Of a DNA stretch of 64,000 nt, positions 4,018-29,064 are shown in pieces; position 1 is the stretch's first letter; the number at the start of each line of letters is the position of its first letter. The notes under the pieces are model-generated. The model was not told where the DNA came from, did not search any database, and saw nothing but the letters and a program-made list of their open reading frames with translations. The DNA is from Escherichia coli O157:H7 (GTDB taxonomy: Bacteria > Pseudomonadota > Gammaproteobacteria > Enterobacterales > Enterobacteriaceae). The stretch lies in assembly GCF_013167455.1 (NCBI RefSeq), contig NZ_CP038330.1, one strand, 5' to 3'. Made by a program: the position numbers and the translations under genes.

Positions 4018-4022
4018 AACAA

Positions 4023-4386: not shown

Positions 4387-4411
4387 AATCACCACCTGAT
4401 AGCTCATCAGA

Positions 4412-5236: not shown

Positions 5237-5291
5237 AATTCCGCCCCCAAAGAGGTGTTGCTATAAAACATGGTTTGAACATCTGGCGCTG

Positions 5292-7375: not shown

Positions 7376-7378
7376 TGG

Positions 7379-7879: not shown

Positions 7880-7887
7880 CTATCCCC

Positions 7888-8220
7888 CTATCGCTTTTTC
7901 TTTCCGACAAGACGGAGATGATCGGCGGCCAAGTCATACTGCTCGTTTTTGTCGCGGCGGCGGAATCTGTCAAAAAACTTCCCTCGTGGCAGGGTTTCTT
8001 CCATAGCGATCAGGCGGTTCAGCCACACTTCTTGAGGTAGCATCCCTGCTGGAGTCGGCCCGAGCTTACGTCCTTCCTTGACGTGCTCCATTGTTTGCGT
8101 GGCAGTAAAAATCGCACCACCAAACTTTCTCCACTTGAATTGCAGGGGCATATCTGGAGACTCATCCAGCATCAATTTCTTATTGGTTTGTTCTGTCACG
8201 ACAATTACTCCACCATCCAT
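7888..8220 (-). CDS. hypothetical protein (110 aa)
   Basis: ORF in operon, short overlap with upstream gene. Confidence 0.4.
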   Translation of the reverse strand: MDGGVIVVTEQTNKKLMLDESPDMPLQFKWRKFGGAIFTATQTMEHVKEGRKLGPTPAGMLPQEVWLNRLIAMEETLPRGKFFDRFRRRDKNEQYDLAADHLRLVGKKKR

Positions 8221-8711
8221 TCTTCACTAAGCAGGAACGCCCAGCGCTCTTCTGCTTTTTCTGGGTTGTCTTTGGCCTGTTTGATCATGATCTCGGCGGC
8301 GTTAAAGCCTACCTCTCCACTGAACCGGCCCCATGAATGGCTATGCCACTCGCGCATCACACTTCGGCCAAGCGATGCAAGTTCTGGACTTACACCCTCA
8401 TGGAGGGCATAGAGCTCCCAAGCATCCCACCCGTATCGTAATAGGTTGTGCCCTGGGGCGTTAAAGGCCTGAGCAGCCTTGAACCGCTCTCCAGGCTCCT
8501 TCCCTCTAACATCCACACCCTGGAGCACCAACCCCATTACCACTTCAATGACAGGCTCGCGTTGCTTCTTTGCCAGCTCGATGGCAGCCACCAGCATTGC
8601 TTTGGCGTCAACAAATTTCCCATGCCCTTGGCACATACCGCAGGTTTCTTTGGAAGGGGAAAAGTCATAAACACCGGAACCAGCACAAAGGCGGCATGTC
8701 AGGTCAATCAT
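8205..8711 (-). CDS. hypothetical protein with DnaJ-type CxxCxGxG zinc-finger repeats
   Basis: MIDLTCRLCAGSGVYDF...CGMCQGHGKF; start chosen at the Met giving an 8-bp overlap with the upstream gene (track start 8729). Confidence 0.4.
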   Translation of the reverse strand: MIDLTCRLCAGSGVYDFSPSKETCGMCQGHGKFVDAKAMLVAAIELAKKQREPVIEVVMGLVLQGVDVRGKEPGERFKAAQAFNAPGHNLLRYGWDAWELYALHEGVSPELASLGRSVMREWHSHSWGRFSGEVGFNAAEIMIKQAKDNPEKAEERWAFLLSEEWMVE

Positions 8712-9411
8712 GGGCTCTTCTCTCCTCATACTCTTCGATGCGCTCTTTCAGACGCTGAACCACTGGTGCGAGCTCAGGGATAGCTTCCGCTTCCTCAAGC
8801 GTGTATCGCTTGTCTTCCTGGTAATCGACTATTTGAGGAGGCCTTGGCTGTTTAGGGAACTCAGCAAAGTCATTCAGCGACATCGAGGTAGGAAGTCCTC
8901 CTTCAATCTCACCTTTTTCGTTGAGTGACTGAGTGACGATAAGCTGTGTTCCGCCCACCTCGGTATCAAAGCGGTCATCAAAGCGCTCACCGATAGTCCA
9001 GCCGCCACGGCCAAGAACACAGGTCGTACTCATACGTAGGCGATTGAATGCTTTAGCGTCATCCCAGTTCAAAGGATTTTCATCCATGAGGAAAAAAGGC
9101 GCTTCGTCCCGAACGAACACCTTGGACTTGGCGTTATCGAAGATCGGCCCAAACACCCCCTGCTGGAGGTATGGTTCGACTTTCTCTGCAAGATCCTGGT
9201 GCCCTTGAGAACGCAGCGCCTCATAGAGCTGGGTGATTGTTTGTTTGCCGGTGTCCGGAAGGCAGGACAATACTGTCTGCTTTTCCTCGTCACTCAGGCT
9301 TACCATTCTGGACAAAAAGCTGACTACCAGCTCGTTGTGCCCATCGACCGTTTCAATGTTGAGCTTGTTCTCGTCCATCTTCTTCCTCAGTAATCGGTTC
9401 GATAAATTCAA
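8704..9411 (-). CDS. hypothetical protein
   Basis: ORF in operon; true start may be the internal Met at 9378. Confidence 0.4.
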   Translation of the reverse strand: MNLSNRLLRKKMDENKLNIETVDGHNELVVSFLSRMVSLSDEEKQTVLSCLPDTGKQTITQLYEALRSQGHQDLAEKVEPYLQQGVFGPIFDNAKSKVFVRDEAPFFLMDENPLNWDDAKAFNRLRMSTTCVLGRGGWTIGERFDDRFDTEVGGTQLIVTQSLNEKGEIEGGLPTSMSLNDFAEFPKQPRPPQIVDYQEDKRYTLEEAEAIPELAPVVQRLKERIEEYEERRAHD

Positions 9412-9634
9412 TGGAGTCCATGCTTACATGACTGATAATGGCTTTCAGGCCGCAGCAGTCGCATGGTTCAAAGGTCAGTTCTGATCCCTTGGGAGACTGA
9501 TGCGTGACCGTTGCCACAGCCCCTAGAGGGATCAACCCCCAGCCGTTTTTTAGTACCCGAGTAGTTCTGACCAGCCGACCTTTGTACTCTCGTTTCAGTT
9601 TCGGATGCGGCACTACCGCATATCGCTTACTCAT
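9353..9634 (-). CDS. hypothetical protein (~94 aa)
   Basis: Start taken at internal Met (MSKRYAVV) to avoid a 95-bp overlap with the upstream gene. Confidence 0.35.
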   Translation of the reverse strand: MSKRYAVVPHPKLKREYKGRLVRTTRVLKNGWGLIPLGAVATVTHQSPKGSELTFEPCDCCGLKAIISHVSMDSIEFIEPITEEEDGREQAQH

Positions 9635-10013
9635 TTCGGTCCCCTTGTACCAAAGGCTCGACAACCAGCTCTTGAGCTTCGTCCCAGTCGGACACCTTTG
9701 CATCACCAAACGCAAAGGCAATTCGCATAGCCACTGTCGGCCTGCCTATTTTCATCAAGTAAGCCGCAGCACCGGCACACATCGACTCTTGTCCCGAAGG
9801 TGCATAGTTACCCTCTTCATCCCATTCACCACCTGACTTTGAGTGCACGGTCTTGTGGCAATGAAACGTCGTCATGTCGTTTTCAACGATGTCGTTGATG
9901 ATGCCTTCTAATCGCCCAGGGGCCAGCTCGATAGCGCCCTCCTTCCGGAATGGACAGTTGGCGCAAGGTTTCTTCAAACGGAGATGATTTGCTTGCTTTG
10001 GCATACATATCAC
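9627..10013 (-). CDS. hypothetical Cys/His-rich protein; first gene of operon
   Basis: CANCPF...HCHK motifs; followed without gaps by ten same-strand genes down to 4108. Confidence 0.45.
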   Translation of the reverse strand: MICMPKQANHLRLKKPCANCPFRKEGAIELAPGRLEGIINDIVENDMTTFHCHKTVHSKSGGEWDEEGNYAPSGQESMCAGAAAYLMKIGRPTVAMRIAFAFGDAKVSDWDEAQELVVEPLVQGDRNE

Positions 10014-10102
10014 TTTTACAGCATCATTTTATGATTCTATGATATAGCCATATTCCGTGTAGTCAATATCTCACTAACAATTACTTTCTATCGGACGCTT
10101 AC

Positions 10103-10119
10103 GCGCCCATTTTGGGCAG
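10103..10119. promoter_or_regulatory. candidate activator box GCGCCCATTTTGGGCAG
   Basis: CC-W5-GGGC inverted-repeat motif ~90-105 bp upstream of the operon start at 10013; similar boxes at 400-416, 36339-36353, 50344-50366. Confidence 0.35.
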
Positions 10120-10178
10120 ATAGACAAGTTATTTGGGCGTTTGGGCGTTTGGAGTGTGCGAGGTGGACAGCGGGGAGA

Positions 10179-10194
10179 CTTTCACATGTGAAAG
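10179..10194. promoter_or_regulatory. 16-bp palindrome CTTTCACATGTGAAAG (copy 1 of 5)
   Basis: Perfect palindrome in the divergent intergenic region; identical copies at 13594, 44203 (core), 50310, 58351. Confidence 0.6.
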
Positions 10195-10330
10195 TTTTGT
10201 TTCTTGGTATCGTTTTATTGTCTCTTGATATTATTTTATGATGCTGTAATAATCATAAATAAGGGCCGCATCGCTCTTCGACCTTCGTTGCAGCCCTTAC
10301 AACACAATCAAGCAATTAAGGAGCTTTGTT

Positions 10331-10474
10331 ATGCTGCAAGGCAATACTAACACGAATAAGCGCATCCCGCTCGCGGCGTTCATGAAATGGCCGCTGGCGA
10401 AACGTCAGGACTTCATCGACCGGGAAATGTCCGGTTGCCCCGACTTTATCAAGACGTCTTTGCTTCGGCATTAA
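10331..10474 (+). CDS. small hypothetical ORF (47 aa)
   Basis: ATG preceded by AAGGAG; followed by a hairpin terminator; below the ORF-track size cutoff. Confidence 0.3.
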   Translation: MLQGNTNTNKRIPLAAFMKWPLAKRQDFIDREMSGCPDFIKTSLLRH

Positions 10475-10496
10475 GGCGATCAGGCAGGAAAGCAAA

Positions 10497-10527
10497 GAAC
10501 CTCGCTTCGGCGGGGTTCTTCGTTTCT
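10497..10527 (+). terminator. terminator-like hairpin
   Basis: AGAACCTCGC-TTCG-GCGGGGTTCT stem-loop followed by a T-rich run. Confidence 0.4.
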
Positions 10528-10565
10528 ACCTCTTGAATGTTTCGTCAGAACAAACTGGAGCGCTT

Positions 10566-11201
10566 ATGTCACCAGAAACACAGCAACTTACATCCAAGGC
10601 TTTATCTCTCATCGAGCAGTCCCGATACAGAATGGGCACATCTCGGTTTGTTGAGGCCTTTATTGACCAGTGGGCATACTTGCAGACTGGCCTATACCCA
10701 GCCAAGGAGGAGATCCCGGAAGAACTTCAGCCGGTCGCCTTCGAGCTCTCTCACGTCCTGTCTGCCGCCATTAAGCGCGACCCCACCAGCGATGTTTTGG
10801 GTTACGTCCTAAGCATGTCTGGCTTCCACAAGAAGGGCACCAATTACTTCCCCACTCCTCCAGAGATTGGCCGCTTGATGTCACTCATTGTTGGCTCACA
10901 GTCTTCGGCAGACTTTTATGAGCCCTGCTGTGGTTCTGGCATCAACGCCATTCACTGGATGGAAAACCTGATCGAGAACCACGGTCCCGAAGCATTGAGA
11001 GAAGCCTCAATCTACCTGGAAGACATCGATCCGTTGATGGTGAAGTGCTGCATGATCCAGCTATTCCATTATTTCGAGTCCCGCAATACCACTCCCAAAA
11101 CGCTGAGTATCGTCGGCATAGACACCCTTAGCAGACGAACCAAGAACATCGCCTACTACGCCGAAAAACCTCCAGCAACCGCCGCTACCGTGGCAGCATA
11201 A
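10566..11201 (+). CDS. SAM-binding N6-adenine methyltransferase-like protein, short (211 aa), lacking the NPPY catalytic motif
   Basis: YFPTPPEIGRLM and DFYEPCCGSGINAI match the TP..V and DPxCGSG motifs of gamma-class N6-MTases; no NPP(Y/F/W) before the stop; ATG at 10566 with GGAG RBS. Confidence 0.45.
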   Translation: MSPETQQLTSKALSLIEQSRYRMGTSRFVEAFIDQWAYLQTGLYPAKEEIPEELQPVAFELSHVLSAAIKRDPTSDVLGYVLSMSGFHKKGTNYFPTPPEIGRLMSLIVGSQSSADFYEPCCGSGINAIHWMENLIENHGPEALREASIYLEDIDPLMVKCCMIQLFHYFESRNTTPKTLSIVGIDTLSRRTKNIAYYAEKPPATAATVAA

Positions 11202-11228
11202 AAAAACCCGCCGATTGGCGGGTTTTGC
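11200..11228. terminator. bidirectional rho-independent terminator
   Basis: AAAAAAACCCGCCGATTGGCGGGTTTT between convergent genes. Confidence 0.65.
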
Positions 11229-11253
11229 ATTCAATGCGCTGCTCTATGGCACC

Positions 11254-11526
11254 TTACAGTTTTCCGTACCGGTTCAAGAACGAAGACCTGTCTAAGATCC
11301 CCCAGTCTGTCAGCATGTAGTAGCCGGTGGCACCTCGTTCGCCGGTAGACTCCCTGACGAACAAGATATTCATTCCGAACTCATCACGCAGGGCAGACAA
11401 CTGTCTCTTGATCGTTGATTCAGGAATATTTGTTGCCTTGTGAAGGTCTTGGAGACTTGGCTTCTCCGTTTTAGACAGGGCATTCACCAAAGCAAATTTT
11501 CTTTTCATGTCCTGTGAGATCTTCAT
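11254..11526 (-). CDS. small HTH DNA-binding protein, third gene of the parAB operon
   Basis: ATG at 11526 with AGGTG RBS (track shows GTG at 11532); immediately downstream of parB as orf 053 is in IncC plasmids (recollection). Confidence 0.45.
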   Translation of the reverse strand: MKISQDMKRKFALVNALSKTEKPSLQDLHKATNIPESTIKRQLSALRDEFGMNILFVRESTGERGATGYYMLTDWGILDRSSFLNRYGKL

Positions 11527-11574
11527 ATTCACCTGTTCTTGACAGGCCCAACCTCTCTGGCTGGGCCTCCTTTA

Positions 11575-12756
11575 TTAGCCTTCGACACTCAGGAGTTCAA
11601 TGTCTGACACAGGCACATGAACATGCTTTTCCTTGCCTTCGCCATCGAGCGTTTTAACCCAGACAGTAGACGGAACCAGAGCAACACGGTCGGTCATGAT
11701 GACTCCACGTTTGGTCTCGCCATCCAGGTTAACGTTGACAGCAAAAATCAAACTGTCAGCCCGGACGTTCTTCCATTCCTTGTCCTTCGGCAGAGGAGGA
11801 AGAGCATCACCGCCTTCTTCATCTTTGTCCTTGCCGCTGTTATCTGGCTGCTTGACAGGATCTTTGTGCTCACCCTCTTCATCACGCAAAGGGTCTTCGT
11901 CATCATCGTCCTGACCATTGGAATTTTTACCCCCTTCCAGTTCCTCCTGGGCAAGGTTCAGGTCGTCATTCCCGGTTTGTTCCGACGTACCATCCCCACC
12001 CGAGTTGAGGGATTGCTCGTCGGTGTTGCCAGCGCCAAGCTCATCATTCTGGTGGGAGCCAGTCAGTGGGCCTTTTTCCATTTCGTCTTTGATACGTTTG
12101 GCATCATTCAGCAGCTCACGGCTTTGTTTACGAGTAATCCCGTCAGACATAGCCACCGCGCAGACGGCGCGACATCTTTCTTCATTCAGATCGAACAAGA
12201 GACGAAGGTTATTCAAGGTCTCTGTATCAGAACATACTTCATTATCGTATAACTCACGCACACAGTCAGGTAGCTTGAGCAACGACAGATGCGTAGATAC
12301 GAAAGTGATATTCTTACCGAGCCGATCAGCAATATCCTTTTGCTTCCAACCTTCTTCAATAAACAGGTTTAACGCCTCGGCAATCTCTACCGGAGTCAAG
12401 TCATCCCGCTGGATGTTTTCGATCAGCTCACCAGCAGTCTCGTCCAAGTTGTTCTGGACCTTATCATTCACCACCAAGTCAATGGTCTCGATACCAGCGT
12501 GTTTACACGCTCTCCAACGCCGCTCCCCTTTTTGGATGACGAACTTGCCTTCTTCGTTCTTCGGGAACACGATGATCGGAGACTGCTGCCCTTCGGTCAG
12601 CAAGGTTGCCGCCAGCTCTTCAATGTTACGGAAGCGCTTACGAACCTGGACCTTGGATACAACGTCGTCAACAGGTACGGTAAGAACCTCTTTGCCTTTC
12701 TTGCCTTTGGCGGCTTTAGCAAGTTCGGACAGGCCTTTTAAATTGTTCAATGCCAT
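11575..12756 (-). CDS. parB: ParB partition protein (ParB/Spo0J nuclease-like domain)
   Basis: 393 aa; ParB N-terminal domain (IIVFPKNEEGKFVIQKGERRWRACKHAG); acidic low-complexity C-terminal half; directly downstream of parA. Confidence 0.85.
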   Translation of the reverse strand: MALNNLKGLSELAKAAKGKKGKEVLTVPVDDVVSKVQVRKRFRNIEELAATLLTEGQQSPIIVFPKNEEGKFVIQKGERRWRACKHAGIETIDLVVNDKVQNNLDETAGELIENIQRDDLTPVEIAEALNLFIEEGWKQKDIADRLGKNITFVSTHLSLLKLPDCVRELYDNEVCSDTETLNNLRLLFDLNEERCRAVCAVAMSDGITRKQSRELLNDAKRIKDEMEKGPLTGSHQNDELGAGNTDEQSLNSGGDGTSEQTGNDDLNLAQEELEGGKNSNGQDDDDEDPLRDEEGEHKDPVKQPDNSGKDKDEEGGDALPPLPKDKEWKNVRADSLIFAVNVNLDGETKRGVIMTDRVALVPSTVWVKTLDGEGKEKHVHVPVSDIELLSVEG

Positions 12757-12759
12757 CGC

Positions 12760-13551
12760 TTAGCCCACCTTCTCTAATAGTTCTTCCAACACCGCCTCAA
12801 CTTCTTTGGCCGCGACATGTCCATAGCGAAGCTCCCAGACAGGGATGCCATCAGTCGTCGCCGTATCGAGCGGAGGCCGGTGCATAATTTTGTTCTCAAA
12901 CAACAGATCCGGAACTGTGTTCTCCAGCGACTTGAGGGCTTTGTCGTGATTGACAGAGCGGTCCATGTCGTTGATCACGATGCCCAGGATCTCCAAATCT
13001 TGGTTGTACGCCTCGCGCACACCAATAATCGTGTTCAGGAGACCTTCTACGCCGTCCACAGCGAAGCCAGAGAGCTTTACTGGACATGCCACATGGGTAG
13101 ACATCACCAACGCTGCCACCAGCTTTCTGCCGAGGCTAGGCGGACAATCAATCAGCACGTAGTCGTAGTTCTCAAACAGCTCAGCCAAATGGCGAGCCGG
13201 ATTCATGGCCTGGTCAAGAGGCACAGCCTCCATCTCAAACAGATCCGGGTCGTTTTTCGGCGTATGAATGAGGTCTGCACCGCAAGGGCAGTGCATGACC
13301 TCAATGCCGTCCAGCTCGTAAGCGAACAGCTCTGCGGTTTTGGTTCCTGTGAGGATGGGCTCGTAGTCACCATCCTCAAGCTCTCGTCTGGGGGCCAGTC
13401 GAGAGGACGTGTTCCCCTGACCATCCATATCCAAGACCAGCACTTTCTTTTTCTTCTGTAACGCCAGATAAAAGGCCTGCTGGATACAGAGGGTACTCTT
13501 ACCCACTCCGCCTTTCTGGTTGGCGAAGCTGATTACTTTTGCCATACCCAC
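12760..13551 (-). CDS. parA: ParA partition ATPase (type I, deviant Walker A)
   Basis: KVISFANQKGGVGKST deviant Walker A; ParA/MinD family length. Confidence 0.9.
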   Translation of the reverse strand: MGMAKVISFANQKGGVGKSTLCIQQAFYLALQKKKKVLVLDMDGQGNTSSRLAPRRELEDGDYEPILTGTKTAELFAYELDGIEVMHCPCGADLIHTPKNDPDLFEMEAVPLDQAMNPARHLAELFENYDYVLIDCPPSLGRKLVAALVMSTHVACPVKLSGFAVDGVEGLLNTIIGVREAYNQDLEILGIVINDMDRSVNHDKALKSLENTVPDLLFENKIMHRPPLDTATTDGIPVWELRYGHVAAKEVEAVLEELLEKVG

Positions 13552-13593
13552 CTCTATTTTGGTTTCTCGCAGGTGATCAAGACCACCCCCAAA

Positions 13594-13638
13594 CTTTCAC
13601 ATGTGAAAGATTGTAGCGATCATAAAATGATACTGCAA
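13594..13638 (-). promoter_or_regulatory. parA promoter with overlapping palindromic operator (copy 2)
   Basis: Minus-strand -35 TTGCAG (13633-13638), 17-bp spacer, -10 TACAAT (13610-13615), then palindrome CTTTCACATGTGAAAG (13594-13609) at the predicted start site. Confidence 0.6.
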
Positions 13639-13718
13639 TATCTAATTATGGTTCTGTTAAAACAAACTTTAAACAAAAAAACGGCCATGAAGGCCGCTTA
13701 TTGACAAGGTTTGTGCTG

Positions 13719-14030
13719 TCAGCGCAATTGATTTGCTGCTCCAAGCCCATTCGCCAATAACTGCATCGCATCGTTGAACAGCGCGGAGCCCCGTTCCGGT
13801 GTGAGCAATTCCGGCATATCTTCTCGCGGCCAAGTACCGGCTACTTGAATGAGCAAACTGGCAGCCCAGTGGATCTGCTTTTCTTCACTTTCATCGGCCA
13901 GAGTGCATACGACGGGGAAACCGTACTTACGCCCCCAGCGACTCACCTCTTTGAACGATACCAGCTCAGGCTTTTGCAAATCCCGGCTGTAGGCCTCAGC
14001 TATCATGTGGTTCAGTTCTTTAGCGTCCAT
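13719..14030 (-). CDS. hypothetical protein; last backbone gene before the resistance island
   Basis: 103-aa ORF with hairpin downstream (~13687-13703). Confidence 0.45.
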   Translation of the reverse strand: MDAKELNHMIAEAYSRDLQKPELVSFKEVSRWGRKYGFPVVCTLADESEEKQIHWAASLLIQVAGTWPREDMPELLTPERGSALFNDAMQLLANGLGAANQLR

Positions 14031-14336
14031 TTATCCCACTCTATTGTAAACAAGACATTTTTATCTTTTATATTCAATGGCTTATTTTCCTGCTAATTGG
14101 TAATACCATGAAAAATACCATGCTCAGAAAAGGCTTAACAATATTTTGAAAAATTGCCTACTGAGCGCTGCCGCACAGCTCCATAGGCCGCTTTCCTGGC
14201 TTTGCTTCCAGATGTATGCTATTCTGCTCCTGCAGCTAATGGATCACCGCAAACAGGTTACTCGCCTGGGGATTCCCTTTCGACCCGAGCATCCGTATGA
14301 GACTCATGCTCGATTATTATTATTATAGAAGCCCCC

Positions 14337-15152
14337 ATGAATAAATCGCTCATCATTTTCGGCATCGTCAACATAACCTCGGACAGTTTCTCCGATGGAG
14401 GCCGGTATCTGGCGCCAGACGCAGCCATTGCGCAGGCGCGTAAGCTGATGGCCGAGGGGGCAGATGTGATCGACCTCGGTCCGGCATCCAGCAATCCCGA
14501 CGCCGCGCCTGTTTCGTCCGACACAGAAATCGCGCGTATCGCGCCGGTGCTGGACGCGCTCAAGGCAGATGGCATTCCCGTCTCGCTCGACAGTTATCAA
14601 CCCGCGACGCAAGCCTATGCCTTGTCGCGTGGTGTGGCCTATCTCAATGATATTCGCGGTTTTCCAGACGCTGCGTTCTATCCGCAATTGGCGAAATCAT
14701 CTGCCAAACTCGTCGTTATGCATTCGGTGCAAGACGGGCAGGCAGATCGGCGCGAGGCACCCGCTGGCGACATCATGGATCACATTGCGGCGTTCTTTGA
14801 CGCGCGCATCGCGGCGCTGACGGGTGCCGGTATCAAACGCAACCGCCTTGTCCTTGATCCCGGCATGGGGTTTTTTCTGGGGGCTGCTCCCGAAACCTCG
14901 CTCTCGGTGCTGGCGCGGTTCGATGAATTGCGGCTGCGCTTCGATTTGCCGGTGCTTCTGTCTGTTTCGCGCAAATCCTTTCTGCGCGCGCTCACAGGCC
15001 GTGGTCCGGGGGATGTCGGGGCCGCGACACTCGCTGCAGAGCTTGCCGCCGCCGCAGGTGGAGCTGACTTCATCCGCACACACGAGCCGCGCCCCTTGCG
15101 CGACGGGCTGGCGGTATTGGCGGCGCTGAAAGAAACCGCAAGAATTCGTTAA
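14337..15152 (+). CDS. sul2: sulfonamide-resistant dihydropteroate synthase Sul2
   Basis: 271 aa, MNKSLIIFGIVNITSDSFSDGGRY..., recognised as Sul2. Confidence 0.97.
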   Translation: MNKSLIIFGIVNITSDSFSDGGRYLAPDAAIAQARKLMAEGADVIDLGPASSNPDAAPVSSDTEIARIAPVLDALKADGIPVSLDSYQPATQAYALSRGVAYLNDIRGFPDAAFYPQLAKSSAKLVVMHSVQDGQADRREAPAGDIMDHIAAFFDARIAALTGAGIKRNRLVLDPGMGFFLGAAPETSLSVLARFDELRLRFDLPVLLSVSRKSFLRALTGRGPGDVGAATLAAELAAAAGGADFIRTHEPRPLRDGLAVLAALKETARIR

Positions 15153-15212
15153 CTGCACATTCGGGATATTTCTCTATATTCGCGCTTCATCAGAAAACTG
15201 AAGGAACCTCCA

Positions 15213-16016
15213 TTGAATCGAACTAATATTTTTTTTGGTGAATCGCATTCTGACTGGTTGCCTGTCAGAGGCGGAGAATCTGGTGATTTTGTTTTTCGAC
15301 GTGGTGACGGGCATGCCTTCGCGAAAATCGCACCTGCTTCCCGCCGCGGTGAGCTCGCTGGAGAGCGTGACCGCCTCATTTGGCTCAAAGGTCGAGGTGT
15401 GGCTTGCCCCGAGGTCATCAACTGGCAGGAGGAACAGGAGGGTGCATGCTTGGTGATAACGGCAATTCCGGGAGTACCGGCGGCTGATCTGTCTGGAGCG
15501 GATTTGCTCAAAGCGTGGCCGTCAATGGGGCAGCAACTTGGCGCTGTTCACAGCCTATCGGTTGATCAATGTCCGTTTGAGCGCAGGCTGTCGCGAATGT
15601 TCGGACGCGCCGTTGATGTGGTGTCCCGCAATGCCGTCAATCCCGACTTCTTACCGGACGAGGACAAGAGTACGCCGCAGCTCGATCTTTTGGCTCGTGT
15701 CGAACGAGAGCTACCGGTGCGGCTCGACCAAGAGCGCACCGATATGGTTGTTTGCCATGGTGATCCCTGCATGCCGAACTTCATGGTGGACCCTAAAACT
15801 CTTCAATGCACGGGTCTGATCGACCTTGGGCGGCTCGGAACAGCAGATCGCTATGCCGATTTGGCACTCATGATTGCTAACGCCGAAGAGAACTGGGCAG
15901 CGCCAGATGAAGCAGAGCGCGCCTTCGCTGTCCTATTCAATGTATTGGGGATCGAAGCCCCCGACCGCGAACGCCTTGCCTTCTATCTGCGATTGGACCC
16001 TCTGACTTGGGGTTGA
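15213..16016 (+). CDS. strA: aminoglycoside 3''-phosphotransferase APH(3'')-Ib
   Basis: 267 aa, MNRTNIFFGESHSDWLPVRGGESGDFVFRRG..., recognised as StrA. Confidence 0.97.
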   Translation: MNRTNIFFGESHSDWLPVRGGESGDFVFRRGDGHAFAKIAPASRRGELAGERDRLIWLKGRGVACPEVINWQEEQEGACLVITAIPGVPAADLSGADLLKAWPSMGQQLGAVHSLSVDQCPFERRLSRMFGRAVDVVSRNAVNPDFLPDEDKSTPQLDLLARVERELPVRLDQERTDMVVCHGDPCMPNFMVDPKTLQCTGLIDLGRLGTADRYADLALMIANAEENWAAPDEAERAFAVLFNVLGIEAPDRERLAFYLRLDPLTWG

Positions 16017-16852
16017 TGTTCATGCCGCCTGTTTTTCCTGCTCATTGGCACGTTTCGCAACCTGTTCTCATTGCGGACACCTTTTCCAGCCTCGTTTGGA
16101 AAGTTTCATTGCCAGACGGGACTCCTGCAATCGTCAAGGGATTGAAACCTATAGAAGACATTGCTGATGAACTGCGCGGGGCCGACTATCTGGTATGGCG
16201 CAATGGGAGGGGAGCAGTCCGGTTGCTCGGTCGTGAGAACAATCTGATGTTGCTCGAATATGCCGGGGAGCGAATGCTCTCTCACATCGTTGCCGAGCAC
16301 GGCGACTACCAGGCGACCGAAATTGCAGCGGAACTAATGGCGAAGCTGTATGCCGCATCTGAGGAACCCCTGCCTTCTGCCCTTCTCCCGATCCGGGATC
16401 GCTTTGCAGCTTTGTTTCAGCGGGCGCGCGATGATCAAAACGCAGGTTGTCAAACTGACTACGTCCACGCGGCGATTATAGCCGATCAAATGATGAGCAA
16501 TGCCTCGGAACTGCGTGGGCTACATGGCGATCTGCATCATGAAAACATCATGTTCTCCAGTCGCGGCTGGCTGGTGATAGATCCCGTCGGTCTGGTCGGT
16601 GAAGTGGGCTTTGGCGCCGCCAATATGTTCTACGATCCGGCTGACAGAGACGACCTTTGTCTCGATCCTAGACGCATTGCACAGATGGCGGACGCATTCT
16701 CTCGTGCGCTGGACGTCGATCCGCGTCGCCTGCTCGACCAGGCGTACGCTTATGGGTGCCTTTCCGCAGCTTGGAACGCGGATGGAGAAGAGGAGCAACG
16801 CGATCTAGCTATCGCGGCCGCGATCAAGCAGGTGCGACAGACGTCATACTAG
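16016..16852 (+). CDS. strB: aminoglycoside 6-phosphotransferase APH(6)-Id
   Basis: 278 aa starting MFMPPVFPAHWHVSQ at the internal ATG overlapping the strA stop. Confidence 0.97.
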   Translation: MFMPPVFPAHWHVSQPVLIADTFSSLVWKVSLPDGTPAIVKGLKPIEDIADELRGADYLVWRNGRGAVRLLGRENNLMLLEYAGERMLSHIVAEHGDYQATEIAAELMAKLYAASEEPLPSALLPIRDRFAALFQRARDDQNAGCQTDYVHAAIIADQMMSNASELRGLHGDLHHENIMFSSRGWLVIDPVGLVGEVGFGAANMFYDPADRDDLCLDPRRIAQMADAFSRALDVDPRRLLDQAYAYGCLSAAWNADGEEEQRDLAIAAAIKQVRQTSY

Positions 16853-17431
16853 ATATCAAGCGACTTCTCCTATCCCCTGGGAACACATCAATCTCACCGG
16901 AGAATATCGCTGGCCAAAGCCTTAGCGTAGGATTCCGCCCCTTCCCGCAAACGACCCCTGGAAGCCCCGTAGCGACGCGGAGAGGGGCGAGACAAGCCAA
17001 GGGCGCAGGCTCGATGCGCAGCACGACATAGCCGGTTCTCGCAAGGACGAGAATTTCCCTGCGGTGCCCCTCAAGTGTCAATGAAAGTTTCCAACGCGAG
17101 CCATTCGCGAGAGCCTTGAGTCCACGCTAGATCTATCTCATCTGCGCAAGGCAGAACGTGAAGACGGCCGCCCTGGACCTCGCCCGCGAGCGCCAGGCGC
17201 ACGAGGCCGGCGCGCGGACCCGCGCCACGGCCCACGAGCGGACGCCGCAGCAGGAGCGCCAGAAGGCCGCCAGAGAGGCCGAGCGCGGCCGTGAGGCTTG
17301 GACGCTAGGGCAGGGCATGAAAAAGCCCGTAGCGGGCTGCTACGGGCGTCTGACGCGGTGGAAAGGGGGAGGGGATGTTGTCTACATGGCTCTGCTGTAG
17401 TGAGTGGGTTGCGCTCCGGCAGCGGTCCTGA

Positions 17432-18082
17432 TCAATCGTCACCCTTTCTCGGTCCTTCAACGTTCCTGACAACGAGCCTCCTTTTCGCCAATCCATCGAC
17501 AATCACCGCGAGTCCCTGCTCGAACGCTGCGTCCGGACCGGCTTCGTCGAAGGCGTCTATCGCGGCCCGCAACAGCGGCGAGAGCGGAGCCTGTTCAACG
17601 GTGCCGCCGCGCTCGCCGGCATCGCTGTCGCCGGCCTGCTCCTCAAGCACGGCCCCAACAGTGAAGTAGCTGATTGTCATCAGCGCATTGACGGCGTCCC
17701 CGGCCGAAAAACCCGCCTCGCAGAGGAAGCGAAGCTGCGCGTCGGCCGTTTCCATCTGCGGTGCGCCCGGTCGCGTGCCGGCATGGATGCGCGCGCCATC
17801 GCGGTAGGCGAGCAGCGCCTGCCTGAAGCTGCGGGCATTCCCGATCAGAAATGAGCGCCAGTCGTCGTCGGCTCTCGGCACCGAATGCGTATGATTCTCC
17901 GCCAGCATGGCTTCGGCCAGTGCGTCGAGCAGCGCCCGCTTGTTCCTGAAGTGCCAGTAAAGCGCCGGCTGCTGAACCCCCAACCGTTCCGCCAGTTTGC
18001 GTGTCGTCAGACCGTCTACGCCGACCTCGTTCAACAGGTCCAGGGCGGCACGGATCACTGTATTCGGCTGCAACTTTGTCAT
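17432..18082 (-). CDS. tetR: tetracycline repressor TetR(A)
   Basis: 216 aa from MTKLQPNTVIRAALDLLNEVGVDGLTTRKLAERLGV; ORF track over-extends the N-terminus. Confidence 0.95.
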   Translation of the reverse strand: MTKLQPNTVIRAALDLLNEVGVDGLTTRKLAERLGVQQPALYWHFRNKRALLDALAEAMLAENHTHSVPRADDDWRSFLIGNARSFRQALLAYRDGARIHAGTRPGAPQMETADAQLRFLCEAGFSAGDAVNALMTISYFTVGAVLEEQAGDSDAGERGGTVEQAPLSPLLRAAIDAFDEAGPDAAFEQGLAVIVDGLAKRRLVVRNVEGPRKGDD

Positions 18083-24036: not shown

Positions 24037-24261
24037 TCATGAGGTTGAACACGGCTTGCGCCGGCAGCGTTCACGCTCCTGGTCGGCGATCTCGCCCGGC
24101 TGCAATGCTAGCTCAGCATCGGTCATGCGCTCCAGCACGTCGCGTAGGCGGATGGTGCAAGGAATGGGCGGCAGCTCGAACTCATAGCCGCCGGCGATCA
24201 TTTCGGCCGCAATCTCCTCGGTGATGAAAAACGGCTCGTCGTCTTGGTTCGGCTTCTTCAT
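24037..24261 (-). CDS. hypothetical protein (74 aa)
   Basis: ORF overlapping the resolvase stop (ATGA). Confidence 0.3.
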   Translation of the reverse strand: MKKPNQDDEPFFITEEIAAEMIAGGYEFELPPIPCTIRLRDVLERMTDAELALQPGEIADQERERCRRKPCSTS

Positions 24262-24965
24262 GCCCTTTCCTCCTGGCGCTCATCCTGGCCGACAGCGGCC
24301 AGGGCATCGGCTTCCGTCAATGCGTCCTCCACGAACGCGCCGTGCTGCTTCGCTTCGGCCTGGCTGACCTCGGCCCATATCCGTTTCACCTGGGCCGCAC
24401 TGTACCCGGCCAGCTCGGCGGTCTTGTTGATGCTGTAGCCGGACTTGCGCAGCGCGACAACTTGGGCGCGGCGCTTCGGATCAGCACGGCGGCCCTTGTA
24501 CCGCCCGGCCTGGCGGGCCAACTCAATGCCTTGGCGCTGGCGTTCGCGCCTGTCCTCGTAGTCGTCGCGGGCCATCTGCAAGGCCAGGCGAAAAAGCATG
24601 ATCTGCACGGCTTCCAGCACGATCTTGGCGACGCCCTGGGCCTCGGCCGCCAGGTCGGATAGATCGACCACGCCAGGGACGGCCAGGCGTGCGCCTTTGG
24701 CCTGTATCGAGGCCACCAGGCGCTCGGCCTCGGGCAAAGGTAGGCGGCTGATGCGGTCGATCTTCTCGGCAATGACCACCTCGCCGGGCTGTAGGTCGCC
24801 GATCATGCGCAGCAGCTCAGGCCGGTCGGCGCGTGCGCCGGATGCCTTCTCACGGTAGATGCCGGCGACGTAGTAGCCGGCGGCCTTCGCGGCCGTAGTG
24901 ATCGCCTCTTGGCGTTCCAAGTCCTGCGCGTCGGTGCTGACGCGCAGATAGACCCGCGCCACCAT
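24258..24965 (-). CDS. serine recombinase (resolvase family)
   Basis: N-terminal catalytic motif MVARVYLRVSTDAQDLERQ; C-terminal HTH (YSINKTAELAGYSAAQVKRIW); start taken at internal Met. Confidence 0.8.
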   Translation of the reverse strand: MVARVYLRVSTDAQDLERQEAITTAAKAAGYYVAGIYREKASGARADRPELLRMIGDLQPGEVVIAEKIDRISRLPLPEAERLVASIQAKGARLAVPGVVDLSDLAAEAQGVAKIVLEAVQIMLFRLALQMARDDYEDRRERQRQGIELARQAGRYKGRRADPKRRAQVVALRKSGYSINKTAELAGYSAAQVKRIWAEVSQAEAKQHGAFVEDALTEADALAAVGQDERQEERA

Positions 24966-25118
24966 CGGCGCGGCTACTGGCTTCGTCCTGCGCATACTTG
25001 CGGGCTCCTTTGGGCATACGCAAAGTGTCCGGTCATGCTACCCCCGGCCAAAAAGGCCGTCATGCGATTTATCTTGGCCGGGTCGTTATTGGCGGGTCTA
25101 AATGGCCGCTCCGTGGAT

Positions 25119-25345
25119 CTCATCGCCAGAAATGGCGATGCGAGATCCAGGGCAGGGCGGCCGCCATCGTCAGACCTGGCGATGGTCGACGCCGGCGCGC
25201 ATCGTCGGATGTGGCGATGCGAGCTCGAGGTCGGTGGCCACCGCCGGCGACCTGGTGCCATCGTCGGCAATGGCGATGCTGCAGCTCGACGTGCGCGGCC
25301 TGGTCGTCTCGGCATCGTCGGATGCGGCGATGCTCGAGCGAGGCG
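25119..25345. repeat. GC-rich iteron-like direct repeats (~5 copies)
   Basis: Repeated CATCGTC(A/G)G...TGGCGATGC units at ~25119, 25157, 25199, 25257, 25312, between the resolvase gene and IS26. Confidence 0.5.
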
Positions 25346-25574
25346 AAAAAAAACCGCCTCGGGGTGTCCGAGGCGGCAAGTCTGCATGCGGTTCAGGGAG
25401 GAAGAAACCGCGCCGGCGATCAGGGAGGAAAACCGCGCGGCCTGATGTGCAGCTCGGCCACTTTAGCCGGATTTTTCGACTTATCCGATGCGAGCGGCCC
25501 GCCGTGGGCGCTGCTCGATCTGCTGTTGCTTTTTCTCGACGTGCTTCTGCTCCTGGTGCTGCTGCTCGTCGCGC

Positions 25575-26394
25575 GGCACTGTTGCAAAGTTAGCGATGAG
25601 GCAGCCTTTTGTCTTATTCAAAGGCCTTACATTTCAAAAACTCTGCTTACCAGGCGCATTTCGCCCAGGGGATCACCATAATAAAATGCTGAGGCCTGGC
25701 CTTTGCGTAGTGCACGCATCACCTCAATACCTTTGATGGTGGCGTAAGCCGTCTTCATGGATTTAAATCCCAGCGTGGCGCCGATTATCCGTTTCAGTTT
25801 GCCATGATCGCATTCAATCACGTTGTTCCGGTACTTAATCTGTCGGTGTTCAACGTCAGACGGGCACCGGCCTTCGCGTTTGAGCAGAGCAAGCGCGCGA
25901 CCATAGGCGGGCGCTTTATCCGTGTTGATGAATCGCGGGATCTGCCACTTCTTCACGTTGTTGAGGATTTTACCCAGAAACCGGTATGCAGCTTTGCTGT
26001 TACGACGGGAGGAGAGATAAAAATCGACAGTGCGGCCCCGGCTGTCGACGGCCCGGTACAGATACGCCCAGCGGCCATTGACCTTCACGTAGGTTTCATC
26101 CATGTGCCACGGGCAAAGATCGGAAGGGTTACGCCAGTACCAGCGCAGCCGTTTTTCCATTTCAGGCGCATAACGCTGAACCCAGCGGTAAATCGTGGAG
26201 TGATCGACATTCACTCCGCGTTCAGCCAGCATCTCCTGCAGCTCACGGTAACTGATGCCGTATTTGCAGTACCAGCGTACGGCCCACAGAATGATGTCAC
26301 GCTGAAAATGCCGGCCTTTGAATGGGTTCATGTGCAGCTCCATCAGCAAAAGGGGATGATAAGTTTATCACCACCGACTATTTGCAACAGTGCC
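25575..26394 (-). mobile_element. IS26, complete 820-bp copy
   Basis: 14-bp terminal IRs GGCACTGTTGCAAA at 25575-25588 and (reverse complement) 26381-26394; intact tnp26. Confidence 0.95.
25627..26331 (-). CDS. tnp26: IS26 transposase Tnp26 (wild-type Gly184)
   Basis: 234 aa MNPFKGRHFQRDIILWAVRWY...; contains RIIGATLGF. Confidence 0.95.
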   Translation of the reverse strand: MNPFKGRHFQRDIILWAVRWYCKYGISYRELQEMLAERGVNVDHSTIYRWVQRYAPEMEKRLRWYWRNPSDLCPWHMDETYVKVNGRWAYLYRAVDSRGRTVDFYLSSRRNSKAAYRFLGKILNNVKKWQIPRFINTDKAPAYGRALALLKREGRCPSDVEHRQIKYRNNVIECDHGKLKRIIGATLGFKSMKTAYATIKGIEVMRALRKGQASAFYYGDPLGEMRLVSRVFEM

Positions 26395-27098
26395 TACATT
26401 TCAAAAACTCTGCTTACCAGGCGCATTTCGCCCAGGGGATCACCATAATAAAATGCTGAGGCCTGGCCTTTGCGTAGTGCACGCATCACCTCAATACCTT
26501 TGATGGTGGCGTAAGCCGTCTTCATGGATTTAAATCCCAGCGTGGCGTTGATTATCCGTTTCAGTTTGCCATGATCGCATTCAATCACGTTGTTCCGGTA
26601 CTTAATCTGTCGGTGTTCAACGTCAGACGGGCACCGGCCTTCGCGTTTGAGCAGAGCAAGCGCGCGACCATAGGCGGGCGCTTTATCCGTGTTGATGAAT
26701 CGTGGGATCTGCCACTTCTTCACGTTGTTGAGGATTTTACCCAGAAACCGGTATGCAGCTTTGCTGTTACGACGGGAGGAGAGATAAAAATCGACAGTGC
26801 GGCCCCGGCTGTCGACGGCCCGGTACAGATACGCCCAGCGGCCATTGACCTTCACGTAGGTTTCATCCATGTGCCACGGGCAAAGATCGGAAGGGTTACG
26901 CCAGTACCAGCGCAGCCGTTTTTCCATTTCAGGCGCATAACGCTGAACCCAGCGGTAAATCGTGGAGTGATCGACATTCACTCCGCGTTCAGCCAGCATC
27001 TCCTGCAGCTCACGGTAACTGATGCCGTATTTGCAGTACCAGCGTACGGCCCACAGAATGATGTCACGCTGAAAATGCCGGCCTTTGAATGGGTTCAT
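26394..27098 (-). CDS. tnp26: IS26 transposase, G184N variant
   Basis: Same as Tnp26 except RIINATLGF (GGC->AAC); stop codon recreated as TAG at the junction. Confidence 0.9.
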   Translation of the reverse strand: MNPFKGRHFQRDIILWAVRWYCKYGISYRELQEMLAERGVNVDHSTIYRWVQRYAPEMEKRLRWYWRNPSDLCPWHMDETYVKVNGRWAYLYRAVDSRGRTVDFYLSSRRNSKAAYRFLGKILNNVKKWQIPRFINTDKAPAYGRALALLKREGRCPSDVEHRQIKYRNNVIECDHGKLKRIINATLGFKSMKTAYATIKGIEVMRALRKGQASAFYYGDPLGEMRLVSRVFEM

Positions 27099-27161
27099 GT
27101 GCAGCTCCATCAGCAAAAGGGGATGATAAGTTTATCACCACCGACTATTTGCAACAGTGCC
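26395..27161 (-). mobile_element. IS26 truncated tandem copy 2 (767 bp; lacks the 53-bp tnp-distal end including one IR)
   Basis: Begins at the tnp stop codon directly abutting the IRL of copy 1; ends with TTTGCAACAGTGCC. Confidence 0.85.
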
Positions 27162-27865
27162 TACATTTCAAAAACTCTGCTTACCAGGCGCATTTCGCCC
27201 AGGGGATCACCATAATAAAATGCTGAGGCCTGGCCTTTGCGTAGTGCACGCATCACCTCAATACCTTTGATGGTGGCGTAAGCCGTCTTCATGGATTTAA
27301 ATCCCAGCGTGGCGTTGATTATCCGTTTCAGTTTGCCATGATCGCATTCAATCACGTTGTTCCGGTACTTAATCTGTCGGTGTTCAACGTCAGACGGGCA
27401 CCGGCCTTCGCGTTTGAGCAGAGCAAGCGCGCGACCATAGGCGGGCGCTTTATCCGTGTTGATGAATCGTGGGATCTGCCACTTCTTCACGTTGTTGAGG
27501 ATTTTACCCAGAAACCGGTATGCAGCTTTGCTGTTACGACGGGAGGAGAGATAAAAATCGACAGTGCGGCCCCGGCTGTCGACGGCCCGGTACAGATACG
27601 CCCAGCGGCCATTGACCTTCACGTAGGTTTCATCCATGTGCCACGGGCAAAGATCGGAAGGGTTACGCCAGTACCAGCGCAGCCGTTTTTCCATTTCAGG
27701 CGCATAACGCTGAACCCAGCGGTAAATCGTGGAGTGATCGACATTCACTCCGCGTTCAGCCAGCATCTCCTGCAGCTCACGGTAACTGATGCCGTATTTG
27801 CAGTACCAGCGTACGGCCCACAGAATGATGTCACGCTGAAAATGCCGGCCTTTGAATGGGTTCAT
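27161..27865 (-). CDS. tnp26: IS26 transposase, G184N variant
   Basis: Identical to the copy-2 transposase. Confidence 0.9.
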   Translation of the reverse strand: MNPFKGRHFQRDIILWAVRWYCKYGISYRELQEMLAERGVNVDHSTIYRWVQRYAPEMEKRLRWYWRNPSDLCPWHMDETYVKVNGRWAYLYRAVDSRGRTVDFYLSSRRNSKAAYRFLGKILNNVKKWQIPRFINTDKAPAYGRALALLKREGRCPSDVEHRQIKYRNNVIECDHGKLKRIINATLGFKSMKTAYATIKGIEVMRALRKGQASAFYYGDPLGEMRLVSRVFEM

Positions 27866-27928
27866 GTGCAGCTCCATCAGCAAAAGGGGATGATAAGTTT
27901 ATCACCACCGACTATTTGCAACAGTGCC
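27162..27928 (-). mobile_element. IS26 truncated tandem copy 3 (767 bp)
   Basis: Identical unit to copy 2; terminal IR TTTGCAACAGTGCC ends at 27928. Confidence 0.85.
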
Positions 27929-28074
27929 CCCAATGCGCTGTCCAGTCATGGAATTCCCTGCAAAATGTCAGGGAAGACTCTATGACCTTCAACGAGATAT
28001 GTCAATAAATTCAAAATTCAATCCTATCCTGACGCAATTTACACATGGCATCTGACATCAGGTTAGGGTATGCC

Positions 28075-29064
28075 TCAGTCTGACAGTGATGAGTCGCAGG
28101 CGTTCGGATCGGCATCGGTTTCGCTCCCGGTCTTGGCGCGCGCCTGGAAGCGCTGATAGCACTCCAGCCCGCAGAAGTGCTCGACGTATTCCGCGCCTTC
28201 CGGGGTGAAGGCGGCATCGAGCGGGATTTCCTTGCAGCACACGCAGCAACTGGTGGCAGTCGGATCATTTGCATTCATGGTGGCACCCCTCCATTGACTG
28301 ACGAAGACGGCGAATGCCGCCGCCGGCATCGGCTTGGCGAACAGGAAGCCTTGTCCTGTGTCGCAGTCCGCTTGTCGCAACAAATCAAGACTCGCCGATG
28401 TTTCCACGCCTTCGGCCACTACTTCCATGCCAAGCCCATGCGCAAGCTGAATCACGGTGCGCACGATGGTCTGGTCGCGGTGGTCGTTGGCGAGTCCGGC
28501 GACAAACGATTGGTCGATCTTGAGCGTGCTGATGGGGCAGCATTTCAGGTGTTGCAGGCAGGAATAGCCGGTGCCGAAGTCGTCGGCGGCGAAGCGCACA
28601 CCGATCTGTCGCAAAGCTTCCAGGGCGGGGAAGATCGCCGGATCACCGAACGCAACCGATTCGGTCAGCTCAATTTCAAGATACGCGGCGGGCAACCCGG
28701 CATCGGCCAGCACGCCCTTTACCCACTTGTCGAAATCTGGCCCCACTTGGCTCGCCGAAACATTGACGGCCAGCCGGAACGGTTGCCATGCCAGCACCCG
28801 CCAGTCGCGCATTTGACGGCAGGCTGCGCCCAGCACCCATGCGCCGATTTCCGGCATCAGGCCGGACGATTCGATCACGGGCAGGAACTGGCCCGGCGGC
28901 AACAGTCCGAGCGTCGGATGACGCCAGCGCAACAGGGCTTCCGCGCCGACAATCTGCTCACTGCGCAAATCGACAATCGGCTGGTAGTGCAGCTCAAGCT
29001 GCCCGCGCTCGACCGCCTGCGCCAGTTGCGCCACTGTCCATTCAATTGGCTGGGAAGCGCTCAT
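28075..29064 (-). CDS. urf2: EAL-domain protein Urf2 of mer modules
   Basis: Start [16 protein letters not shown] overlapping the merE stop (ATGA); EAL signatures (EALLRW, ELTES); ORF track over-extends to 29550. Confidence 0.8.

Follow-up and report, generated by a model that had tools for sequence, protein, structure and literature searches.

What sequence of events leaves three head-to-tail copies of one insertion sequence, only one of them complete, at the seam between two resistance modules? The question arises in the 64-kb stretch of DNA analysed here (the window), in which a sequence-only reading had reported a complete 820-bp IS26 followed, with no DNA in between, by two identical 767-bp truncated copies, an account that proved exact in coordinates and lengths. 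The array and its flanks are laid out as follows.

24258-25574, minus strand: left flank, the end of resistance island ARI-B, with a 245-aa recombinase-family gene (24258-24995) and a 579-bp non-coding stretch
25575-26394, minus strand: copy 1, complete IS26, with IRR at 25575-25588 and IRL at 26381-26394
26395-27161, minus strand: unit 2, truncated IS26-v1 (IS26 bases 1-767, without the 53-bp IRR end), with IRL at 27148-27161
27162-27928, minus strand: unit 3, truncated IS26-v1 (IS26 bases 1-767), with IRL at 27915-27928, abutting the urf2/mer flank
26381-26410, no strand: junction 1, the IRL end of copy 1 joined to IS26-v1 base 767, with the break between 26394 and 26395; a lineage marker
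27148-27177, no strand: junction 2, the identical 30-mer 767 bp further on, with the break between 27161 and 27162; it makes the array three units long
27929-29064, minus strand: right flank, the mer end of ARI-A, with a DUF3330 (urf2-like) gene at 28075-29064, named from the annotation of collinear, identical public plasmid sequence

Copy 1 ends in perfect 14-bp terminal inverted repeats (GGCACTGTTGCAAA at 25575 and TTTGCAACAGTGCC at 26381) and, having 820 bp and both 14-bp GGCACTGTTGCAAA repeats, is an IS26 in the full sense. Units 2 and 3 retain IRL only and are fragments, not IS26 elements. Read on the plus strand, each truncated unit equals copy 1 less its initial 53 bp, that is, its IRR (tnp-distal) end; the two units are 100% identical over 767 bp, with zero DNA between them, and both start-to-start spacings within the array are 767 bp. 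Throughout the 64-kb window, the IS26 ends amount to one IRR and three IRLs, all of them in the array. The array was delineated by a find-repeats analysis and direct comparison, as Tandem Repeats Finder, with a maximum period of 500 bp, did not report a 767-bp repeat. Chance is of no concern for exact repeats of this length.

Each copy retains a transposase gene.

25627-26331, minus strand: tnp26, wild type (Gly184), 234 aa, stop TAA; identical public-plasmid DNA is annotated WP_001067855.1
26394-27098, minus strand: tnp26 G184N (IS26-v1 allele) of unit 2, 234 aa, stop TAG completed by 26394, the last base of copy 1's IRL; identical public-plasmid DNA is annotated WP_001067858.1
27161-27865, minus strand: tnp26 G184N of unit 3, 234 aa, stop TAG completed by base 27161

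All three open reading frames encode a single 234-aa IS6-family DDE transposase and match the NCBIfam IS6 family transposase model NF033587 at 275.6-278.2 bits (275.6 for the wild-type copy; cut-off 125). Translation bears out the motif RIIGATLGF reported for copy 1 and RIINATLGF for both truncated units, the proteins being identical at 233 of 234 residues. A two-nucleotide difference had been proposed, which is correct for the codon that yields G184N, but the truncated units differ from copy 1 at three nucleotides in total (25781, 25782 and 25936 in copy 1; 26548, 26549 and 26703 in unit 2; 27315, 27316 and 27470 in unit 3). These sites correspond to IS26 positions 614, 613 and 459: the changes at 613 and 614 convert codon 184 from GGC to AAC, and the one at 459 is silent. 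They are the same three differences that distinguish IS26-v1 (Pong et al. 2019), which the defining passage of PMC9412624 separates from IS26 by three nucleotides, two of them giving G184N, although the variant in the window lacks bases 768-820 and IRR and is not a complete autonomous IS. The enhanced activity of the G184N Tnp26, which the sequence-only reading had mentioned, is credited to Pong et al. (2019) in the passages of PMC9019673 and PMC9412624 that cite that work.

The truncated units had further been described as beginning at the transposase stop codon, without the 53-bp end and its inverted repeat. The IRR end is absent as described, but the break falls inside the stop codon, after its second base, so that TA is kept and the third base is the terminal G of the neighbouring copy's IRL (plus-strand C at 26394 or 27161), turning TAA into TAG. 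Because the stop codon is completed by the neighbouring copy's terminal base, all three tnp26 genes remain full length. Of the three intact tnp26 genes in the array, two are the hyperactive G184N allele, yet the array has only one IRR alongside three nested IRLs; it carries no resistance gene, and a selected function is not obvious. No Rfam family matched between 24000 and 29000, and a promoter scan returned weak sites only, in numbers no greater than the shuffled expectation.

As had been noticed, the array occupies a seam between two resistance modules, with ARI-B (floR/tetA/ISCR2) on the left and the urf2-mer part of ARI-A on the right. ISVsa3/ISCR2 and floR lie farther left of the recombinase-family gene, and in pAR060302, too, this left flank lies next to an IS26 of ARI-B. 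On the other side, the DUF3330 gene is followed by merE-D-B-A-P-T, merR and then IS4321, and pSN254, pSNE2-1923 and pCMY have an identical right flank. Window positions 1-18000 and 39000-63900 show 100% identity to IncC backbones, and the islands are collinear with those of pSNE2-1923 at 99.9%. Carrying ARI-B (sul2-strAB-tetA-floR-ISCR2) and the mer end of ARI-A upstream of rhs, the window belongs to the pSN254 lineage of type 1 IncC (A/C2) plasmids. Immediately outside the array, CGTCGCGC on the left and CCCAATGC on the right do not form an 8-bp target-site duplication, and on this ground we reject a plain insertion of IS26 into continuous DNA. The missing duplication is no argument against IS26 identity, since its absence is expected after IS26-mediated deletion or recombination.

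Comparison with related plasmids separates what was inherited from what is specific to this sequence. The type 1 IncC plasmids pSN254 (NC_009140), pAR060302 (NC_012692) and pSNE2-1923 (NZ_CP025275) carry a pair consisting of IS26 and truncated IS26-v1 beside urf2-mer in ARI-A, in which copy 1, the v1 unit, the junction and the mer flank match those in the window at every base. Specifically, the corresponding IS26 of pSN254, pSNE2-1923 and pCMY agrees with copy 1 at all 820 bp, and the truncated copy in pSN254 and in pSNE2-1923 does not differ from unit 2. The pairs have one truncated unit, whereas the window has two; pSNE2-1923 additionally shares the window's left flank, while the left flank in pSN254 is tniB instead of ARI-B. 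Between identical 500-bp flanks, pCMY (NZ_MT816498) has one wild-type IS26, pSNE2-1923 has two copies and the window has three. A 50-mer centred on the joint, which can seed only across it, had hits in 44 of 72,556 PLSDB plasmids, pSN254 and pAR060302 among them, and in 2 of 5,426 E. coli genomes. The junction-bearing records inspected were all IncC plasmids, mostly from US cattle-associated Salmonella Newport, and the junction 30-mer had no exact match in GTDB representative genomes, JGI metagenomes or IMG/VR. These comparisons indicate that the two-copy structure is not new and is an old marker of one IncC lineage, leaving the third unit as the sole feature of the array that is peculiar to this sequence. 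Wild-type and variant copies do occur together, which had been taken as a sign of events at this locus, but that combination was inherited from the two-copy structure of the 44 PLSDB plasmids. In the literature that we found, neither the junction of IS26 with truncated IS26-v1 nor passenger-less arrays of truncated IS26 are described, and the history given here is thus drawn from sequence comparison alone.

We consider it probable that this passenger-less tandem array was built in three steps on a type 1, pSN254-like IncC resistance plasmid. The first step would be old and inherited: a wild-type IS26, codirectional with an IS26-v1 that adjoined urf2-mer, would have undergone an intramolecular copy-in (adjacent-deletion) reaction with its target between IS26-v1 bases 767 and 768. 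Such an event would remove the intervening integron/tni DNA together with the final 53 bp of IS26-v1, and fuse the IRL end of IS26 to base 767. That the joint lies at the exact terminal base of IRL points to a transposase-made joint rather than random breakage, and in pSN254 the array stands in place of the DNA between tniB and urf2, as an adjacent deletion would leave it. Also in pSN254, the 8 bp to the left of copy 1 are CATCGGCG, whereas the unit opens with the 8 bp TACATTTC, step 1 leaving no target-site duplication to check. This mismatch is expected for a deletion event and is not positive evidence of one.

In the second step, recombination of this IS26 with the oppositely oriented IS26 of ARI-B would have inverted the backbone segment in between, moving the floR/ISCR2 end of ARI-B to the left of the pair. 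This step is supported by two observations: in pAR060302, the ARI-B IS26 beside the recombinase gene is opposite in orientation to the ARI-A pair, and in the window the ARI-B/backbone side is inverted relative to mer-rhs-tra. The plasmid probably occurs as inversion isomers.

The third step would have taken place in the lineage of this sequence, as an unequal homologous crossing-over between copy 1 and unit 2 of sister plasmids or, equivalently, as excision and re-entry of a 767-bp circle. With the exchange point between IRL and the silent SNP, a span of 459 bp, such an event would add one 767-bp unit carrying all three v1 bases; the second truncated copy is most likely an ordinary one-step tandem duplication. 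The array has the properties of a tandem duplication by unequal crossing-over: the 767-bp period occurs twice, both junctions are the same 30-mer, each SNP pattern is explained by one exchange interval, and one-, two- and three-copy alleles occur at identical flanks. The sequence-only reading had offered two origins, repeated targeted IS26 events or amplification of a 767-bp unit, and the latter is the better option. Repeated insertions or targeted events, one for each truncated copy, would be in line with the known preference of IS26 for integrating beside existing IS26 copies (PMC7986276). However, the two junctions share one 30-mer and one internal breakpoint, a coincidence implausible for two independent insertions, and the units are 100% identical; targeted conservative events add a whole IS26 with its passenger, not copies cut at base 767; unit 2, without IRR, cannot carry out copy-in transposition; and the first junction was inherited from the pSN254 lineage. 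The identical breakpoints effectively refute such an origin, and we regard it as extremely improbable.

A second expanded array bears on the one-step duplication. Two junctions 767 bp apart were found among PLSDB records only in CP082643.1 (pN16S224-2, Salmonella Newport, ground turkey), where they abut the same mer flank and form at least three units, as in the window. Its middle unit differs from the window's in being wild type at all three SNPs, so that this expansion was independent of the one described here; the record starts within the array, which hides the first copy and the full length. Under the crossing-over model, an exchange within 153 bp of the unit's start yields the CP082643.1 pattern and an offset of at least 309 yields that of the window, so that uniform exchange along the unit would give CP082643.1-type arrays in about 20% and window-type arrays in about 60% of events.

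The third unit might instead have been added by the assembler, the true plasmid having two copies or the population being heterogeneous, an explanation that we consider unlikely. The window's array was not found in any PLSDB or E. coli complete-genome record, and the junction occurs once in 41 of the 44 PLSDB records and twice in three. Of these, CP082479.1 has a single locus that was assembled at each end of a linear record, and pSNE2-1923 holds two separate pairs of IS26 and truncated v1. (An 887-bp query over two junctions was uninformative against PLSDB, as BLAST reached 100% coverage by chaining fragments of ordinary IS26 copies.) Long-read relatives were troubled at this very place: the CP082643.1 sequence opens within the array, the ends of CP082479.1 overlap across it in untrimmed, low-quality sequence, and pSNE2-1923, a linear record, has a stretch of ARI-B in duplicate. 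The probable inversion isomers, moreover, tangle assembly graphs. Against an artefact, the array lies mid-window with unique flanks on either side, and its units are base-perfect, with all three SNPs kept distinct from copy 1. Short-read assemblers collapse such repeats rather than expand them, and a systematic artefact would not yield the different SNP pattern of CP082643.1.

If the third unit is genuine, the agent that added it could also have been the transposase. The 767-bp unit, comprising IRL, tnp26-G184N and the junction, might act as a minimal translocatable unit without a passenger, which Tnp26 would cut out as a circle and put back beside an existing IS26, in a targeted conservative reaction at the IRL end, possibly combined with rolling-circle copying. 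There is precedent in the documented amplification of IS26 structures through circular units and conservative re-insertion (PMC9602291), the unit encodes the hyperactive G184N transposase, and pSNE2-1923 has the same truncated v1 unit beside a different IS26 in ARI-B, as if it had moved. Nevertheless, the window gained one extra unit, compared with about 7 to 65 copies in the cited Tnp26-linked cases under selection, and the unit has a single IS end and shows no target-site duplication or other transposition footprint. The ARI-B copy of pSNE2-1923, a linear assembly of uncertain quality, could also result if homologous inversion took place twice in succession, each time with another crossover partner, and plain homologous exchange fits every SNP pattern just as well. 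We consider transposase-driven amplification unlikely as well. Its broader form, in which the 767-bp unit is a one-ended translocatable unit whose circle is excised or copied by the hyperactive transposase and re-inserted beside any IS26, we hold to be less likely still. If it were true, such arrays would expand and seed other IS26 copies, as in the ARI-B of pSNE2-1923, raising transposase dosage and reshaping the plasmid through nested left ends.

The three-step history, ending in a one-step duplication, builds on what the sequences show: how the array is put together, where its junction came from, that one, two or three copies can lie between identical flanks, and that a second expansion took place independently; the enzymology of steps 1 and 3 we infer. 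RecA-dependent crossing-over, conservative re-insertion of a 767-bp circle catalysed by Tnp26, and replication slippage would all fit the sequence, which does not distinguish among them.

The same two candidate mechanisms, unequal crossing-over and circle re-insertion, apply to IS26-bounded tandem amplifications of aphA1 (PTn6020), blaTEM-1 and blaOXA-1/CTX-M, which are likewise head-to-tail with a period that includes one IS26-derived copy. In contrast to these, the array in the window has no passenger gene and hence no selectable dosage effect, its repeated IS is incomplete, and it has one extra copy. Nor is it an array of translocatable units or of pseudo-compound transposons, which consist of complete IS26 with passenger bounded by direct complete IS26: its repeat unit is 767 bp of IS26 sequence only, without passenger or IRR, and it ends in a truncated copy. 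The IS26-v1-Δv2 structure at the left end of PTn6020 (PMC9602291) likewise joins an IS26 variant to a partial copy of a second variant, but with other variants, another breakpoint and another host (Acinetobacter); the comparison is with its published description.

The IRL-767 junction is a precise and rare tracer of pSN254-type IncC plasmids in US livestock-associated Salmonella and E. coli, and the copy number of the array (1, 2 or 3) together with its SNP pattern logs the history of recombination where ARI-A and ARI-B rearrange. Two G184N tnp26 genes and a complete IS26 at such a rearrangement hotspot could raise local IS26 activity. The locus also carries a warning for assembly and annotation, as automated pipelines annotate an ordinary IS26 transposase gene in each unit and overlook the missing end in two of the three.

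We show that the head-to-tail IS26 array is real and that its structure is ordinary, a known lineage marker at a different copy number. The sequence-only reading described it accurately except for two details, the number of base differences and the position of the break. The array comprises:

25575-26394: IS26 copy 1, complete, 820 bp, with perfect 14-bp inverted repeats at both ends (GGCACTGTTGCAAA / TTTGCAACAGTGCC)
25627-26331, minus strand: transposase ORF of copy 1, 234 aa
26395-27161: truncated unit 2, 767 bp, no spacer after copy 1
27162-27928: truncated unit 3, 767 bp, directly abutting unit 2

The copy 1 ORF scored 275.6 bits against NCBIfam NF033587 (IS6 family transposase; cut-off 125 bits), and all 820 bp match the IS26 copies annotated WP_001067855.1 in plasmids pSN254, pSNE2-1923 and pCMY. 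Units 2 and 3 are mutually identical, each corresponding to copy 1 minus its first 53 plus-strand bp, i.e., to IS26 bases 1-767 without bases 768-820 and without the right inverted repeat (IRR). The 64-kb window contains one IRR, three left inverted repeats (IRLs) and no further IS26 ends. Three bases, rather than the two first reported, separate the units from copy 1, at IS26 positions 613, 614 and 459; the first two convert GGC to AAC (Gly184Asn), and the third is silent. These are the differences that define IS26-v1 in PMC9412624 (three nucleotides, two of them giving G184N). The earlier statement that G184N enhances activity agrees with PMC9019673 (citing Pong et al. 2019), which reports increased Tnp26 activity and cointegration frequency. 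Nor do the units start at the stop codon: the break falls inside it, TA of TAA is retained, and the terminal G of the adjoining copy's IRL supplies the third base. Because the neighbouring IRL thereby completes the codon as TAG, all three transposase genes are full length. Each joint also creates a weak sigma-70-like site on the minus strand (TTGAAA, 16 nt, AATAGT; 26377-26404 and 27144-27171), its -35 lying at the end of one tnp26 and its -10 in the next copy's IRL; sigma-70-like sites showed no excess over shuffled sequence.

The IS26/truncated IS26-v1 junction is old and marks a plasmid lineage. A 50-mer centred on the joint, for which megablast seeding was possible only across the joint, matched 44 of 72,556 PLSDB plasmids (39 Salmonella, four E. 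coli and one Klebsiella), including pSN254 and pAR060302, as well as two of 5,426 complete E. coli genomes, both plasmid-borne and of bovine or veal origin. All examined records among the junction matches were IncC, mostly from US cattle, beef, turkey or swine. The exact junction 30-mer was absent from 100,044 GTDB representative genomes, JGI metagenome contigs and IMG/VR. pSN254 reads tniB – wild-type IS26 – truncated IS26-v1 – DUF3330/urf2 – merEDBAPT – merR – IS4321; its two IS copies and its mer flank are identical to those of the window at every base. Therefore, the combination of wild-type with variant copies, previously read as suggesting repeated targeted IS26 events or amplification of a 767-bp unit, was inherited rather than made in the window. 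We found no literature description of the junction or of a passenger-less truncated-IS26 array; junction-bearing sequence has been public for years in records such as pSN254.

Judged by its sequence, the window is an IncC plasmid, with 100% identity to IncC backbones at 1-18000 and 39000-63900. Left of the array lies the end of resistance island ARI-B (a 245-aa recombinase-family gene, ISVsa3/ISCR2, floR and tet(A)), and right of it the mer end of island ARI-A. In pAR060302, the IS26 adjoining the recombinase gene is oriented opposite to the ARI-A pair. Compared with pAR060302 and pSN254, the window carries its ARI-B/parAB/topoisomerase III side in inverted orientation to mer-IS4321-rhs-traFHG, which implies an inversion between the opposed ARI-B and ARI-A IS26 copies; such an exchange would invert the intervening backbone segment and give the window's arrangement. 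pSNE2-1923 shares this arrangement but with two copies (99.9% identity over 21 kb). Just upstream of the recombinase-family gene (24258-24995, minus strand), non-coding positions 25119-25343 hold five imperfect 20-22-nt palindromes (CATCG.C...GGCGATG), 35-59 nt apart, resembling clustered binding sites for a recombinase or resolvase.

Where the 500-bp flanks on either side of the array are identical, pCMY (NZ_MT816498) carries one wild-type IS26 only, pSNE2-1923 IS26 plus one unit, and the window IS26 plus two. Among PLSDB records, paired junctions 767 bp apart at the same mer flank occurred, besides the window, only in CP082643.1 (Salmonella Newport, ground turkey), where v1 is confined to the last unit. 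Because its middle unit is wild type (3/3 SNP sites), CP082643.1 represents a separate event and a different allele. Since long-read records of related plasmids are interrupted or duplicated here, the exact copy number read from any one assembly should be taken cautiously, and the extra copy might be a pure assembly artefact; however, the unique flanks around a mid-window array, the base-perfect units with SNPs kept distinct from copy 1, and the differently patterned array in another strain argue against this. CP082479.1 was rejected as a second double-junction array, its two junctions being one locus assembled twice at the record ends. A low-quality IS26/truncated-IS26/mer copy with many 1-3-base indels occupies 1-1481 of this linear record and the region recurs near the other end (110700-112300), indicating untrimmed terminal overlap; its copy 1 has the sugE/blaCMY-2 region on the left, the outcome of a further IS26-side deletion.

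The first junction uses the exact terminal IRL base, suggesting that transposase made the joint. We infer, as the simplest origin, an adjacent deletion, in which wild-type IS26 would have undergone intramolecular copy-in at bases 767/768 of a directly oriented IS26-v1, with loss of the 53-bp IRR end and of the tni/integron DNA between the two elements. Both the loss of DNA between tniB and urf2 in pSN254 and the lack of a target duplication at the array fit this origin. Repeated targeted IS26 events had been one of two proposals for the array, but the second junction repeats the first junction's 30-mer between identical units, and is thus a duplicate of an existing joint rather than a new transposition; unit 2, lacking IRR, could not have made it by copy-in. 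Unequal crossing-over between unit 2 of one plasmid copy and copy 1 of another would yield L–IS26–hybrid unit–unit–R, in which the hybrid unit switches, left to right, from v1 to wild-type bases at the exchange point. An exchange point at unit offset 309 or higher, a range covering about 60% of the unit, would produce the window's all-v1 unit, and one below offset 154 (about 20%) the all-wild-type unit seen in CP082643.1; the reverse exchange would leave the one-copy allele. Thus one ordinary process would account for all these states. Excision of a 767-bp circle that re-entered via RecA or the Tnp26 targeted conservative reaction would be equally compatible, its products being the same, and crossing-over versus circle re-entry is likewise the choice framed for IS26-associated amplification (PMC9602291; PMC7986276). 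Given just one extra unit and no passenger gene selectable for dosage, we favour a neutral homologous event as the probable source of the third unit.

On an unlikely alternative reading, the G184N unit would act as a self-spreading, one-ended mini-unit, to which the sole pointer is a second copy beside a different IS26 in the linear pSNE2-1923 record; two homologous inversions account for that copy equally well. This second, identical pair of IS26 and truncated IS26-v1 (NZ_CP025275.1 54000-68000, locus positions 6273-7859) lies inside ARI-B, additional to the mer-adjoining pair, with an inverted IS26 about 440 bp beyond it; part of ARI-B is present twice. The extra pair may have arisen by transfer of the unit from one IS26 copy to another, by two inversions in succession, or by misassembly of isomers.

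All components were already known: IS26, IS26-v1, IncC ARI-A/ARI-B, and IS-mediated deletion, inversion and duplication. Unlike translocatable-unit or pseudo-compound-transposon arrays, the repeat unit here has no passenger and its IS is incomplete, placing the array outside that defined class; functionally, it resembles a simple tandem duplication. At the ARI-B left flank, pCMY (NZ_MT816498.1) has a single wild-type IS26 fused straight to the mer flank, and in pN16S074-1 (CP082737.1) merE follows two inverted IS26 copies; both represent additional rearranged forms of this IS26 hotspot. The Salmonella plasmids NC_006856.1 (pSC138, serovar Choleraesuis), EU219534.1 and NZ_CP100720.1 also carry a single IS26, with left and right flanks that share about 98% identity with those in the window.
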